From Clostridiales bacterium UBA4698 (GTDB lineage: Bacteria > Bacillota > Clostridia > TANB77 > UBA1234): 64,000 bases of DNA. Positions 11,817-20,610 of this stretch are shown here, one piece after another. Location of the stretch: contig DHKI01000014.1 in assembly GCA_002404755.1 (NCBI GenBank), positions 4,056 to 68,055 on the forward strand. The letters run 5' to 3'. The position numbers and the translations under genes were made by a program. Within the stretch, counting starts at the first letter, position 1, and each line of letters opens with the position of its first letter. The notes beneath the pieces are model-generated. The model saw only the letters and a list, made by a program, of their open reading frames with translations. It made no database searches and was not told where the DNA came from.

Positions 11817-11868
11817 CATTGGAGCCAATAGCCGGAATCGAACCGGCGACCTACTGATTACGAATCAG
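11817..11868 (-). repeat. attL: displaced 3' portion of tRNA-Thr (52-nt direct repeat)
   Basis: Identical to 20559..20610. It covers the tRNA 3' end through the anticodon loop, and identity stops at 11869. Confidence 0.85.
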
Positions 11869-11888
11869 CGAAGTTTTAGAAATGAACA

Positions 11889-12059
11889 TTAGGTCCAGTA
11901 ATCGTTTATGTCTATTATTTCTATTTTTATTTTATAATTAGGATATTTTTTTGAGTAAAAAGGTTCTAGAAATCTCATGAAGCCTTCTTCATTTAGGTCG
12001 TTTTGACTTTCTACAGTTTCAAGAATTTTTTCTCCAGCTTTTATAATAATTTTACACAT
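11889..12059 (-). CDS. Hypothetical 56-aa protein at the prophage left end
   Basis: Hand-translated as MCKIIIKAGEKILETVESQNDLNEEGFMRFLEPFYSKKYPNYKIKIEIIDINDYWT. It has an AAAGGAGA RBS. It falls below the ORF-track size cut-off. Confidence 0.35.
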   Translation of the reverse strand: MCKIIIKAGEKILETVESQNDLNEEGFMRFLEPFYSKKYPNYKIKIEIIDINDYWT

Positions 12060-12140
12060 TTTTAATTTCTCCTTTACTTTTTTATTGTTTGATGTTAATA
12101 TTTAGTTATTGGAGGGAGATTGACTCCCTCCAGATTAACT

Positions 12141-12245
12141 TTAGAATGAATTGTGAAGTTCCATAATGTTGTTCCAAAGTTTGCGTTTTTTAGTTCTTAG
12201 CTTCCAGATAGCTAGGAACTTTTTTATTTTTTTGAATATTTTCAT
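12141..12245 (-). CDS. Hypothetical 34-aa basic peptide
   Basis: Sequence MKIFKKIKKFLAIWKLRTKKRKLWNNIMELHNSF with a GGGAGG RBS. It is followed by the hairpin ggaggga..tccctcc (12111-12131). Confidence 0.2.
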   Translation of the reverse strand: MKIFKKIKKFLAIWKLRTKKRKLWNNIMELHNSF

Positions 12246-12289
12246 ATTTTAACCTCCCTTCATTTAGATTTTTTGGTCAGCTTCGCACA

Positions 12290-12860
12290 AATTAAAGAGA
12301 ATACTAGAACGGCATCTCGTTAATTTTCAGATGCATATTGCCCCGAAATTAAGAGCTACGAAGCCCTACCCTGTCCCCCCAAAATGGAATAACAGGTGTA
12401 AGCACTATCGTGCTTACACCTGTTACTTTTAAAAAGAGAAAACTTAAACCATATGTCAATGTGCCCCGCTAAAGCGGGGTGTCGGAAGATTTTTTTATTG
12501 GGCGGGCTGTGCTCGCACGATAAAAAAATACGCAACAATTGACATATGGCCTCTCGCTCCCGGGTAGTAGAGAGCCTGACAAACTAACAACAAACAAAAA
12601 TAGCAGTACTACTAACTAGCACCGCTACAAAGAAACTAATTTTAGCCGATGTCCCCCGGTTTGTTACTGCACGCCCCCCCACGCCGAGCACGGAGTAAGG
12701 ATATGGAGATAGTGAAATTATTCGTTTCCCAATAGAATTACCCATATTCGAATAATGGAACGGTCGGAATATCCTTACTTTGTGCCCCCCTGAGACAACT
12801 AGGAAGGTAATATATTAGGAAACCAAGGTGGTGTCCTTACAAACATTAAATAATATTCAT
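12290..12860. other. G+C-enriched, highly structured non-coding block (phage origin/packaging region or a large ncRNA)
   Basis: It contains nested perfect hairpins, listed in the findings, and no ORF with an RBS. The composition differs clearly from the AT-rich flanks. Confidence 0.45.
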
Positions 12861-12951
12861 ATATTTATTTTTACATCGGCGAACTTTATATATAAACTTT
12901 ATAATATTATCTTGAAAATCAATTACCTTATATTTTAACTTGAAGATTATT

Positions 12952-13182
12952 TTATAACTGTTTCTTTGTTCTTGGATATGGTTTCATTTCATCGGTTAAT
13001 CCTAGTATATAATCTACACTCACATTGTAAAAAGTAGATAAATTTATTAGTACAGTTGTTGGAATATCATTTTTTCCTATTTCGTATTGATTGTATCCAG
13101 TTTGTGACATATTTAGAATTTGTCCAACTTGTTTTTGTGTTAAGTCCTTATCTTCTCTTAGTTCTCTAATTCTTTTATACAT
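12952..13182 (-). CDS. XRE-family HTH repressor (Cro/CI-like)
   Basis: LTQKQVGQILNMSQTGYNQYEIGKN is a typical HTH_3 segment. It is divergent from the phage + strand genes. Confidence 0.85.
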   Translation of the reverse strand: MYKRIRELREDKDLTQKQVGQILNMSQTGYNQYEIGKNDIPTTVLINLSTFYNVSVDYILGLTDEMKPYPRTKKQL

Positions 13183-13215
13183 AAACATGCCCCCCTTTGC
13201 GAAAAATTATACGAT

Positions 13216-13288
13216 AACTTAAAATAAGTTGTTGACATTAAACTTAAAATAAGTTAAATTTAAAGTGTACCTTAACTTAAATTAAGTT
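13216..13288 (+). promoter_or_regulatory. Switch region with three palindromic operators and a sigma-A-like promoter
   Basis: AACTTAAAATAAGTT occurs at 13216-30 and 13241-55, and AACTTAAATTAAGTT at 13274-88. TTGACA (13232-37) is followed by a 17-nt spacer and TAAATT (13255-60). Confidence 0.6.
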
Positions 13289-18172: not shown

Positions 18173-18220
18173 CATAATTTTTTAAAAGGTGTGATTTTTG
18201 ATGGTTTACCATAATTTTTA

Positions 18221-18250
18221 CTCGCCGGTCCCCCAGTAACACCCGGCGAG
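18221..18250 (+). promoter_or_regulatory. GC-rich hairpin upstream of rep (candidate double-strand origin or nick site)
   Basis: ctcgccgg (18221-28) pairs with ccggcgag (18243-50). The 14-nt loop tcccccagtaacac carries part of the GTCCCCC motif. Confidence 0.4.
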
Positions 18251-18340
18251 TGTCCCGATTTAGGGAATTTTCGTTTACATAATGCAAAATTTATACTTGC
18301 ATTATAATTTACATAATTAGAAAAAGCGAGGTAATTTTTT

Positions 18341-19384
18341 ATGATTGATACAGTAAAAATTTATACCCGTATTGATGAACATATTTATAAAATAATTCGT
18401 TTTAATTCTAACATAAAATGCATGTACAATAAAGCATCAGGTGAAGTTTTTTATGAGATTATAAACGATAGTCTTGAAGGTACATATGATAGTAGGCTTA
18501 GTGTTCGTGTTTTTAGTGGTTCTAAGTATGGATTTATATATAAAAATAGTTATTGTTTAGAGATTGAAGGTAGTTATCATAAAATAATGAAAGGGCAAAA
18601 TGCATTTAATGGTTATTATAGTATTCAAGAAATCACAAATGGTTTTATTACTCTAGTAGAAAATGCATATAATATTACTCTTCCTTCACTCAATCATTGG
18701 TTTTTATGCAGAGCAGATTTAACTAAATGTTTTGATTTATATAATCAAAATAATGTTTGCAAATATATAAATTCTTTAAGATATTTATCTTATCCGCGTA
18801 GAAATATAAAATTTTTTGAAAATGAAACATTATATTGTGCAGGAGATGTCAGCACTTTAAAAATATATAATAAGTATTTAGAATTTTGTAAAAATGACAA
18901 ATTTAAGGTTTCTAAGTTTACTAATATTTTTGATATAACAACAAAAATACAAGGTTTTGTTAGATTTGAATGTGAAATTAAAAAAAAGAAGTTAATGACA
19001 ATTTATAATAAAAAATATTTAAGAGTTACGTTGATTAATTATAAGGATTTAGAGAAAGTATGGAGTGATGAATTTATGAAGATATTAAAATTTGATAAAG
19101 AAACGTACGAACGTGTAAAAACTAAAGAAGAAGTTGTCGAAAGATTAAATAAAAATTTTAAAGCAGGAAAAGCTTTGAGATTGTACCAATTTTTTATAAC
19201 GATAATAAATGACGGATATAATGATGTGAAAAACAAGACTTCAAGTACTTCATTTTATAGAAATATAAGTGATTTAAAATCTGTTGGCATTGATTTTTCT
19301 CAGAATAATTTTGAAGAAATTCCCAGGCTAGATTTAAACAATATAATAGATTTTGATCCATTTGTTTGGCAGGAGGTTATCTGA
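18341..19384 (+). CDS. Rolling-circle replication initiator (phage CRI / gpII / Rep_trans-like)
   Basis: The pattern LCRADLTKCFDL, LKIYNKYLEF and VRFECEIKKKKL matches the RxDl / YxK / RxE blocks of this Rep class, as recalled. Confidence 0.65.
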   Translation: MIDTVKIYTRIDEHIYKIIRFNSNIKCMYNKASGEVFYEIINDSLEGTYDSRLSVRVFSGSKYGFIYKNSYCLEIEGSYHKIMKGQNAFNGYYSIQEITNGFITLVENAYNITLPSLNHWFLCRADLTKCFDLYNQNNVCKYINSLRYLSYPRRNIKFFENETLYCAGDVSTLKIYNKYLEFCKNDKFKVSKFTNIFDITTKIQGFVRFECEIKKKKLMTIYNKKYLRVTLINYKDLEKVWSDEFMKILKFDKETYERVKTKEEVVERLNKNFKAGKALRLYQFFITIINDGYNDVKNKTSSTSFYRNISDLKSVGIDFSQNNFEEIPRLDLNNIIDFDPFVWQEVI

Positions 19385-19385
19385 T

Positions 19386-19604
19386 ATGCTTAGTTATATA
19401 ATAACCTATAAAAATGGTAGCAGATTGGGTGCACTATGTACAGACTTTAGAATAAAAGACAATCTTTTGATTATAGAGGGGTATGACGACGTTAATTATG
19501 CAGATGGTCTGGAAAGAAAACATTGGATGTCAAGGGTTGAGTGGTCAGAAATAAAAGAATTTAAGGTAGAAGTTTTGACGGATGATGAAATAGATAACAT
19601 TTAA
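19386..19604 (+). CDS. Hypothetical 72-aa protein
   Basis: AGGAGG RBS. It lies between rep and int. Confidence 0.4.
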   Translation: MLSYIITYKNGSRLGALCTDFRIKDNLLIIEGYDDVNYADGLERKHWMSRVEWSEIKEFKVEVLTDDEIDNI

Positions 19605-19671
19605 AATATATCAGATAATAAAAAAATTATAAAAGAAAGCGATTACAATCCTATAGAATGGAAGTGATTTT

Positions 19672-20547
19672 ATGAGATTATCTAACGCATTAGATTTGTT
19701 TTTTAACGATTTAATTGTTAGAGGTATGCAAAAAGATACTATAAGAGCATATAAAACGCAAATAATGCCTTTTATTAAGTTTACAAACAATATTTGTATA
19801 GATAATATAAATTATGATACATATTGCGATTATATTCGTTTTTTAAGAAATAAAAATTTGAGCATGACAACAATACATACATATGCTAATTCATTAAAAG
19901 TATTTTTTAGATTTTTATATAAAAACTCTTATATGAAAGTTAATTTAGCTGATATTATTGTCCTTCCTCGTGCTTATAAAACAGAACCTAATATTTTAAA
20001 TCCAGATATTATTCTAAAAATAATAAATGAATATGATTTAACTGATATGATAGCTTGCAGAAATATTTTGATTTTAATATTAGCTTTTGATTGTGGACTT
20101 CGTCGTTCTGAGATTTGCAGGCTTAAAATAGAAGATTTCATGTTTGACAGTAATGTTTTTAAAGTATCTGGTAAAGGTAATAAGAATAGAATTGTGCCTA
20201 TTTCTGAAACATTAGCCTTTTATTTAGAAAAATATTTATCTTTTAGAGAGAATACAAACGGTCCATTATTATTAACAAAAGATGAAAAAGAGTTAACAAG
20301 CTATGCTCTCAGCTCATTATTCAGAAGAATTAAGAAAAAATATAAGCTAAGCAAGTTTAACCCACATTTGTTAAGACATAGTTATGCAACATTATTTTTA
20401 TTGAATGGTGGAGATTCACTCGCACTTCAAAGGCTTTTAGGTCACACAACGTTAACAATGACTAATAGATATGTGCATTTGGCACAAAGTTTAAAGATTG
20501 CAGAGCAAAAAAAATATAGCCCACTGACTAAAAATGGGCTACATTAA
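19672..20547 (+). CDS. Tyrosine recombinase / phage integrase (XerC/D-like)
   Basis: GLRRSEICRLK (catalytic Arg), HLLRHSYAT, LLGHTTLTMTNRYVH (H-x-x-R ... Y). It is adjacent to the tRNA. Confidence 0.9.
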   Translation: MRLSNALDLFFNDLIVRGMQKDTIRAYKTQIMPFIKFTNNICIDNINYDTYCDYIRFLRNKNLSMTTIHTYANSLKVFFRFLYKNSYMKVNLADIIVLPRAYKTEPNILNPDIILKIINEYDLTDMIACRNILILILAFDCGLRRSEICRLKIEDFMFDSNVFKVSGKGNKNRIVPISETLAFYLEKYLSFRENTNGPLLLTKDEKELTSYALSSLFRRIKKKYKLSKFNPHLLRHSYATLFLLNGGDSLALQRLLGHTTLTMTNRYVHLAQSLKIAEQKKYSPLTKNGLH

Positions 20548-20558
20548 ATCTTTAAAAC

Positions 20559-20610
20559 CATTGGAGCCAATAGCCGGAATCGAACCGGCGACCTACTGAT
20601 TACGAATCAG
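20559..20610 (-). repeat. attR: 52-nt repeat forming the 3' part of the intact tRNA-Thr
   Basis: Identical to 11817..11868. Confidence 0.85.

Follow-up and report, generated by a model that had tools for sequence, protein, structure and literature searches.

The 64,000 nucleotides (nt) that were analysed here, hereafter called the window, are part of contig DHKI01000014.1 of Clostridiales bacterium UBA4698, an uncultured gut bacterium of low GC content. Within the window, the segment 11817-20610 can be assigned with high confidence to a temperate filamentous phage in integrated form, which belongs to a monoderm-type lineage of the order Tubulavirales. The prophage is intact, temperate and of the inovirus type, whereby it is almost certainly functional and probably active. 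It is a further member of a phage group that is already known from gut Clostridia and does not constitute a new category. The original prediction had proposed a filamentous-phage-like prophage at this position, and this is supported by the profile matches of a Zot-type ATPase, a rolling-circle replication initiator (Rep) and a coat protein, as well as by the relatives of the element. Its accompanying statement that filamentous phages of Gram-positive anaerobes are very poorly characterised is overstated for gut Clostridia (PMC6813254; PMC10061712).

The boundaries of the element are defined by a perfect 52-nt direct repeat, which is present at 11817-11868 (attL, left attachment site) and 20559-20610 (attR, right attachment site) with a start-to-start spacing of 8742 and which cannot be a product of chance. 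ARAGORN identified an intact tRNA-Thr(CGU) gene, the integration target, at 20562-20637 on the minus strand (anticodon CGT), which was also recognised by the Rfam tRNA model with 75.7 bits. From the coordinates of the tRNA and the repeat it follows that the right repeat, which lies within the intact tRNA, comprises the last 49 nt at the 3' end of the tRNA and 3 further nt downstream, and attL presents the displaced copy of the same sequence. The repeat search, ARAGORN and Rfam thus confirmed that the repeat is the 3' part of tRNA-Thr(CGU), as had been predicted. The prophage unit comprises 8,742 bp, a size within the range of about 5-15 kb that goes with the operational definition of inoviruses by Roux et al. 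(2019; PMC6813254). A XerC/D-like tyrosine integrase of 291 amino acids (aa) is encoded at 19672-20547 on the plus strand (Phage_integrase PF00589, 117.3 bits), at the same end as the intact tRNA, and this predicted arrangement of tRNA and integrase was likewise verified by ARAGORN and Pfam. The integrase gene ends 11 nt short of attR. Its closest solved relative in the PDB is the XerC-like protein 4a8e (E 1e-29), whereby the catalytic-region motifs GLRxSE, LRHSxAT and LLGH are aligned and identical. All listed open reading frames (ORFs) are present, 13 of the 16 are located on one strand, and all 16 are intact. Family searches of the 16 ORFs against Pfam and PHROG yielded no match to capsid, portal, terminase, tail, lysin, relaxase, type IV secretion or secretin families, which bears out the earlier claim that capsid, portal, terminase, tail, lysin and conjugation genes are absent. 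Apart from a PHROG match of orf56 (see below), Pfam or PHROG families were assigned to the products of five genes, namely pI, Rep, integrase, repressor and coat, and to none of the other ORFs.

The morphogenesis module starts with the gene for a pVIII-type major coat protein of 97 aa (13847-14140, plus strand), which is suggested by a profile match, a transmembrane (TM) scan and the gene position. The protein matches phrog_2186 "virion structural protein" with an E value of 1e-4. The same family was matched by 8 of 10 members of the coat family, and phrog_1646 "major coat protein" by one of them; the Pfam inovirus coat models gave scores at noise level only. The protein shows a signal peptide at residues 11-35 ending in AFA, an acidic N-terminus, a TM segment at residues 51-86 and a basic tail, with a net charge of +7, so that the pVIII layout that had been recognised in this 97-aa protein is borne out by the TM scan and by phrog_2186. 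Homologues of the coat gene are located directly upstream of pI in 66 loci. Directly 3' of the coat gene there is a terminator-like G+C hairpin followed by a T-rich tail (14147-14164, plus strand). The next gene, at 14189-14935 on the plus strand, codes for a pI/Zot-type morphogenesis ATPase of 248 aa. It had been predicted as a Zot/pI-like P-loop ATPase, and the profile search that was suggested for it passed the curated Pfam cut-off (Zot PF05707, 25.5 bits, cut-off 20.3) and matched phrog_197 "Zot-like" (E 3e-7). The Walker A (GxQGxGKT) and Walker B (DEI) motifs are invariant in 20 aligned pI relatives of 228-263 aa. No TM segment was detected in pI nor in any of these 20 relatives.

The start of the following gene, orf49 (14928-15077, plus strand), overlaps the pI stop by 8 nt. 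It encodes a single-TM protein that is a candidate membrane partner of pI, and homologues occupy the same position in 48 loci. Further downstream on the plus strand are orf60 (15080-15262), encoding a small single-TM protein that is a candidate minor virion or assembly protein, and orf56 (15272-15442), whose product is basic and Cys-rich and matches phrog_27214 (E 7e-4). The hydropathy scan found no TM segment in the orf56 product, which is predicted to be soluble. Thus, from the at least five tiny membrane ORFs that had been claimed, a TM segment was found in four (orf49, orf60, orf90a and orf90b), but not in orf56. The gene orf90a (17448-17720, plus strand) encodes a polytopic membrane protein that is pVI-like by position, and its homologues directly follow the pIII-like gene in 49 loci. 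Behind it lies a 19-bp hairpin (17723-17762, plus strand), which is a candidate packaging signal or operon terminator; an equivalent hairpin of 18-20 bp but different sequence is found at the same place in L099, L101, L103 and in bajarodino virus 41. The TM scan showed an N-terminal TM segment and an acidic tail in the product of orf90b (17785-18057, plus strand), and the adjacent orf44 (18038-18172, plus strand) has homologues in 10 loci. Overall, the gene order coat-pI-orf49-...-pIII-orf90a is kept in up to 100 loci.

The largest gene of the module, at 15458-17443 on the plus strand, encodes the pIII-like protein, as suggested by architecture, TM scan and alignment. The secreted and anchored architecture that had been proposed for this protein stands, whereas its length is not 662 aa but either 661 aa (ATG at 15458) or 666 aa (GTG at 15443). 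Its leader resembles a signal peptide or lipobox and is followed by a beta-rich N-terminal domain, the acidic linker YDYDDEDTSD, the middle cassette and a C-terminal domain with a TM anchor. No family match was found in Pfam and PHROG. An AlphaFold2 model, which was calculated from a 9-sequence alignment, had a predicted local distance difference test score (pLDDT) of 41 and was too poor for use. Since neither sequence homology nor a usable AlphaFold model is at hand, we infer the pIII role from architecture and position, by analogy with the logic of pIII in the Ff phages (M13/f1/fd). In this respect, the role that had been given to this protein was overstated; for it, as for a presumed single-stranded DNA (ssDNA)-binding protein, it is architecture or position that speaks. 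The middle cassette is wholly different in otherwise close relatives. In comparison with L007, which is otherwise 85-100% identical to the element, it shows 44-62% identity and many gaps (window 16411-16982), and among distant relatives only the C-terminal part is kept (39 loci). Such a pattern points to an exchange of cassettes or to diversifying selection at a putative host-recognition domain. In L008 the pIII-like gene is fused (739 aa), and in L010 it is split (527+133 aa).

A rolling-circle replication initiator of the gpII family is encoded at 18341-19384 on the plus strand. The profile search of this region, for which a rolling-circle Rep had been proposed, passed the curated Pfam cut-offs for Phage_CRI (49.8 bits, cut-off 21.7) and G2P_X_C (25.6 bits, cut-off 25) and gave a match to phrog_702 (E 5.5e-29). 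The following orf72 (19386-19604, plus strand) originates from the metagenome gene call and had no match in family searches. Just upstream of rep, repeats and hairpins on the plus strand mark a candidate plus-strand (rolling-circle) origin at 18169-18330. Three TTTAC(C)ATAAT repeats (18205, 18274 and 18308) lie in this block, together with a hairpin at 18219-18252, whose loop reads ..CAGTAACAC, and a second small hairpin at 18252-18266. In 13 loci the loop motif TAGTARCACCC is found on the plus strand a short distance upstream of rep; each of them has this type of Rep, and the motif is missing from the 95 other loci. The 13 loci include distant ones, whose Rep is 45-50% and whose pI is 38-52% identical. 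Moreover, at least five different sequences of the stem keep their pairing. This co-variation, together with the co-occurrence of motif and Rep type, suggests that this block constitutes the plus-strand origin and that the nick site is located in the loop of the 18219-18252 hairpin.

An XRE/HTH_3 repressor is encoded at 12952-13188 on the minus strand (Pfam HTH_3, 49.4 bits; phrog_8, E 9e-20). In the adjacent switch region (13206-13288), three 15-bp palindromic operators with the sequence AACTTAAAWTAAGTT (at 13216, 13241 and 13274) lie over divergent sigma-70-like promoters. An operator scan in which one mismatch was allowed yielded five matches in the window, of which that at 23562 is unrelated; none of 100 shuffled sequences reached this number. 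The pattern scan and the Pfam and PHROG matches thus confirmed the XRE repressor with three palindromic operators that had been described before. In L110, L112 and L113 the N-terminal half of the repressor and the operators are replaced (L110 2766-3045 compared to window 13015-13298). The replaced segment is of unrelated sequence and contains different palindromes (ATATAAC...GTTATAT), and both sides of it are >99% identical to the element. Because the repressor N-terminus and the operators have been swapped together in these loci, hetero-immune variants appear to circulate. The first gene of the rightward operon is ORF105 (13423-13740, plus strand), which is supported by the metagenome gene call and has homologues in 12 loci. 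By its position only, it is a candidate for the ssDNA-binding protein. An AlphaFold2 model of ORF105 from a 3-sequence alignment was beta-rich, with a pLDDT of 47, and was too poor for use, and PDB sequence searches with ORF105 and Rep gave nothing meaningful. Between the operators and the ORF105 homologue of the related phages L099 (286-375) and L101 (1147-1237), ARAGORN reported tRNA-like structures of ~90 nt with odd anticodons (ATA, ACT), which could be false positives or a tRNA-like leader element; no such structure was reported by ARAGORN at the corresponding place in the window.

With respect to mobility, the metagenome contig L110 (ERZ26858475 NODE_5695) is of particular importance. 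Here, the sequence corresponding to window 19593-20610 is joined to that of 11817-13015 via a single att copy, so that the integrase gene and the att site are followed by orf56m, the intergenic region and the repressor gene. This is the junction that is expected of an excised circle or of tandem copies, and since L110 spans it, circular or tandem copies of the element exist. The attP-type junction for which a search had been recommended was thus found in a contig from another sample. The Rep of the element is present in identical form on 16 metagenome contigs. In L007 and L008 the element occupies the same tRNA-Thr/gatB site next to an unrelated left flank, whereby the homology starts exactly at 11817. 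To the left of the attL copy, L007 carries ~38 nt (3493-3530) that are equal to the right end of the element (integrase 3' end plus spacer), which suggests the relic of a tandem or attP-type junction or a largely deleted second element. The identity between the window and L007 is mosaic, with 99-100% for rep, int and the switch region and 68% for orf56m, in addition to the low values for the pIII middle given above. In relatives that possess a different integrase, the element terminates in a fragment of a different tRNA. A 30-nt terminal overlap of L101 was rejected as a sign of a circular genome, as it lies within the tRNA-derived att repeat and is ambiguous.

Several points weigh against an active filamentous prophage. 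For this host, virions, ssDNA and excision are predictions from the sequence, and a monoderm envelope is likewise presumed. The Pfam Zot score of pI exceeds its cut-off just modestly, and pI has no TM segment, unlike the Ff pI, so that its coupling to the membrane is conjecture. The roles of the pIII-like protein, ORF105 and the small ORFs are without homology support, and comparison of ORF105 with M13 gVp by hhalign gave a probability of 1%. The L110 contig could represent a tandem prophage junction rather than a free circle or, with lower probability, a path that the assembler took across the 52-nt repeat. Furthermore, an uninterrupted tRNA-Thr site (attB) was not found via contigs with identical GatB or Sau3AI-like proteins, and every such contig that is long enough to tell carries the prophage. 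The missing empty site and the presence of the element in all contigs with the neighbouring Sau3AI-type gene would fit a cryptic inovirus prophage that is integrated, vertically inherited, and unable to excise or to make virions; structure predictions that gave several genes no functional support, and the indirect nature of the evidence for activity in the host, point in the same direction. We consider this explanation unlikely, because all 16 ORFs, the origin and the operators are intact. In addition, a second genomic context has retained Rep, integrase, repressor and operators with 99-100% identity although its pIII has diverged strongly, which argues for selection on a working phage, and both the attP/tandem junction contig and the circulating hetero-immune variants speak against a cryptic element.

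Alternatively, the segment might be an integrated rolling-circle plasmid or an integrative element that is mobilisable or conjugative, in which the coat would be a VirB2/TrbC-like pilin and the P-loop protein a transfer ATPase. Rolling-circle Reps and tyrosine integrases occur in plasmids and integrative elements as well, Rep modules are exchanged among the relatives, and some members of the coat family match the TrbC/VirB2 pilin below threshold (best 25.6 bits, cut-off 27.9). However, the coat of the window itself does not get below an E value of 0.19 against TrbC, yet it matches phrog_2186. Neither a relaxase nor any component of type IV secretion, VirB4 and VirD4 included, turned up in the family searches. 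The ATPase scores above the Zot cut-off, the Rep belongs to the gpII family of filamentous phages, and relatives have been deposited as faecal inoviruses with circular genomes of 4-6 kb. Such an element is therefore highly improbable. To the same very low degree we would expect a satellite or defective derivative whose morphogenesis would in part require a filamentous helper phage. Satellites of inoviruses have been described from Vibrio, and no recognisable pVII/pIX or ssDNA-binding homologues were found in the element. On the other hand, it carries its own coat, pI, pIII-like and pVI-like proteins, Rep, origin and integrase, and its gene set is at least as large as that of the complete circular 4-6 kb relatives. 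An intact temperate filamentous phage is the explanation that we prefer.

The relatives of this prophage are numerous. In the protein collection, pI relatives amounted to 1,709 protein clusters at E<=1e-5. A pI scan of the genome collection with one genome per species yielded 79 loci, nearly all from gut Clostridia or Bacillota metagenome-assembled genomes, with a best match of 52% identity. The pI is 50-51% identical to that of Enterocloster citroniae DSM 19261 (L030) and 43% identical to that of E. aldenensis (L061). Phage records with a pI of 44-48% identity are complete circular Inovirus genomes of 4-6 kb from rodent faecal and porcine samples. A single-protein scan of IMG/VR with pI revealed no relatives. 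Because of the hosts of these relatives and the lack of a secretin in the element, the host is presumably a monoderm member of the Bacillota. The Rep families differ among the relatives: in addition to the Phage_CRI type of the window, Rep_trans is found in E. citroniae (L030), REP_ORF2-G2P in bajarodino virus 41 (L001) and L015, and Rep_OBD/RepB_C in L016. Hence, a single morphogenesis module has been combined with no fewer than four unrelated Rep families and with different integrases. In human gut contigs (L015-L018), a pI variant with 53% identity (P0057) was present in 181 blocks of the assembly collection. Its context is that of a spore-former (YabP, YabQ), and depending on the sample the locus harbours one or another Rep module, which indicates that P0057 belongs to a very common human-gut inovirus prophage. 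Some relatives on short contigs were binned elsewhere, namely with Paludibacteraceae (L035), Melainabacteria (L053) and Tenericutes (L028), and this placement is probably a binning artefact of small phage contigs.

What is known of filamentous phages in monoderm anaerobes of the gut comes for the most part from computational catalogues, and experiments are limited to one study on Enterocloster. The catalogue of Roux et al. (2019) comprises thousands of inovirus prophages, some with tRNA att sites; the authors also described monoderm-associated candidate families and reported a frequent exchange of replication and integration modules (PMC6813254). Burckhardt et al. (2023) identified inovirus prophages in E. 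citroniae and E. aldenensis, with flanking direct repeats for all predicted prophages including that of E. aldenensis, detected DNase-protected pI DNA in the supernatants of four strains, E. citroniae among them, and imaged filaments of E. bolteae and E. clostridioformis (PMC10061712). The Enterocloster prophages L030 and L061 resemble the element of the window in that coat, a TM-less pI of ~230 aa, pIII-like protein, 90-aa membrane protein, Rep and tyrosine integrase occur in the same order, integrated in gut Clostridia and without a secretin. However, L030 has Rep_trans in place of Phage_CRI, the integrase comprises 357 aa and is 25% identical, and the coat is ~26% identical. Moreover, no tRNA is located within 10 kb of either prophage, and the GC content of the hosts differs. 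L030 derives from strain DSM 19261 and may be the prophage that was studied in E. citroniae WAL-17108. The circular faecal inoviruses are represented by the bajarodino viruses (e.g. PQ006142, 5,427 nt) and the porcine "Inovirus sp." (e.g. MT135300). Bajarodino virus 41 (PQ006142) shares with the element the coat (39% identical), pI, the 49-aa gene (orf49, 44%), a large ORF (C-terminal part of pIII, 27%), the ~90-aa gene (orf90a, 32%) and Rep, as well as the hairpin after the orf90a homologue, but has neither an integrase nor an XRE switch, and its Rep belongs to the REP_ORF2-G2P family.

In Ff phages a terminator follows gene VIII and the intergenic region is structured. The element likewise shows a terminator-like hairpin after the coat gene and a hairpin-rich non-coding region, and it also shares with Ff the Rep with Phage_CRI and G2P_X_C domains, the pVIII layout of the coat and an origin upstream of rep. 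Sequence similarity to the Ff coat, pIII or ssDNA-binding protein was not found. Unlike Ff, the element is temperate, encodes both an integrase and a repressor and lacks a pIV secretin, and its pI of 248 aa has no TM or periplasmic domain and precedes the pIII-like gene. The combination of a TM-containing pI and a pIV secretin, which characterises the Ff type, is thus absent, with no match to any secretin family. Because of this, we group the element with the candidate families that Roux et al. associate with monoderm hosts and not with the Inoviridae in the strict sense. CTXphi and other Zot-bearing vibrio phages are similar in their Zot/pI ATPase, in an integrated lifestyle with tandem copies and in a variable repressor/operator cassette. 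CTXphi shows rstR heteroimmunity and integrates via the host XerCD at dif, whereas the element has its own integrase and a tRNA target, and no toxin genes were recognised in it. Among 50,697 phage records, the sole Rep match was the Lentisphaerae phage WC36-1 (26% identity over 97% of the length; PMC11361711). This phage has a diderm host, however, and its pI is not among the 20 records that match the pI of the element.

Another prominent feature is a GC-rich structured intergenic region of 600 nt (12250-12850, plus strand; GC content 43-46% versus 28%). Neither this region nor the block at 18169-18330 upstream of rep had been pointed out in the original prediction. As ssDNA it folds far more stably than shuffled sequences (z = -9.7) and forms hairpins at 12390-12425, 12449-12549 (compound) and 12688-12785, with the inverted repeats I1, I3, I4 and I8. 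The core of the compound hairpin (GGAAGATTTTT..AAAAATAC) is common to L101, L102 and L103 on the plus strand only, and the 12688-12785 stem with its 37-nt arms shows compensatory changes in comparison with L007. No Rfam match was obtained at E<=1 in 12250-12850, and exact-pattern scans of IMG/VR and the JGI metagenomes with two pieces of the intergenic core gave no match. A relaxed version of the hairpin motif in L056 and L071 was rejected, as these sequences do not fold. Likewise, a 283-nt block that is 100% identical between the window and L007 was not taken as a sign of special constraint, since other modules of this mosaic are equally identical. The region resembles the Ff intergenic region in kind, and a minus-strand origin, a packaging signal or an RNA are candidate functions. 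On the minus strand, a terminator-like hairpin with a T-run (12600-12628) is located ~320 nt downstream of the repressor stop; it may end a long structured 3' untranslated region of the repressor transcript or a separate small RNA. Between attL and the structured region, two small ORFs lie on the minus strand. The small acidic orf56m (11889-12059) is 41% identical in L007 and has no family match, and the surrounding block 11817-12016 is 68% identical there. The 34-aa product of orf34m (12141-12245) is very basic (+10) and 100% identical in L007; in tblastn it matched only the window's own contig and L007/L008. Judged by eye, a similar C-terminus (...NIME[LI]HN) may be encoded in L101 and L103.

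From these features the following life cycle can be proposed. Relief of the repressor would allow transcription of the rightward operon, and a circular 8.7-kb form would arise by the integrase or by replication from tandem copies. Rep would then nick the plus strand in the loop ..AGTAACAC of the 18219-18252 hairpin, so that rolling-circle replication releases plus (coding) strand ssDNA, which may be coated by ORF105. A long hairpin (17723-17762 or 12449-12549) could act as packaging signal, and the GC-rich region could be the minus-strand origin. The soluble pI ATPase might dock on the products of orf49, orf60 and orf90a and drive DNA extrusion through the single membrane, whereby coat subunits, inserted by means of their signal peptide, would replace the ssDNA-binding protein. 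The pIII-like protein with its C-terminal TM anchor would cap the filament, and its replaceable middle and N-terminal domains would bind the host. A secretin would be neither needed nor encoded. For a filamentous virion with circular ssDNA that would leave the cell without lysis, there is indirect support from the secreted relatives in Enterocloster (PMC10061712) and from the circular faecal relatives. In new infections, the integrase would recombine attP with the tRNA-Thr gene and thereby regenerate an intact tRNA. It is possible, though on balance doubtful, that the lineage, which is widespread in gut Clostridia, employs a distinct monoderm extrusion machine, composed of a soluble pI of 230-260 aa and a separate, translationally coupled membrane part of ~49 aa, and that the 600-nt region is an undescribed ssDNA minus-strand origin or regulatory RNA. 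If this were true, the element with its origin and swappable cassettes would offer a compact model of the filamentous phages that infect Gram-positive anaerobes of the gut, and possibly a vector chassis.

Irrespective of this, the element is a complete and cleanly bounded example in which att sites, integrase, repressor and operators, coat, ATPase, Rep and an origin supported by comparative genomics can all be placed. Of particular note are the origin, which could be defined, the split arrangement of a TM-less pI, the immunity and receptor cassettes that can be swapped, and the structured intergenic region. The morphogenesis module is common in gut Clostridia, and its varied pairing with Reps and integrases illustrates the modular exchange that has been proposed for inoviruses. 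This suggests that such phages are less rare in gut commensals than screening of culture collections had indicated.

No toxin, resistance or defence cargo was recognised within the element, and the search of the flanking genes found only housekeeping genes and a Sau3AI-type restriction-modification pair. The latter is located immediately left of attL and consists of a Sau3AI-family endonuclease (10303-11685; NCBIfam, 496.7 bits) and a Dcm-type cytosine methylase (8893-10161). It is absent from the L007/L008 context and may thus be part of a variable island beside the tRNA. The sequence GATC occurs once in the element (11869-20558; 8,690 nt) compared to 14.1 expected sites, and 29 times in the host flanks compared to 121.6 expected sites. 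This strong avoidance is consistent with a long exposure to GATC-specific restriction.

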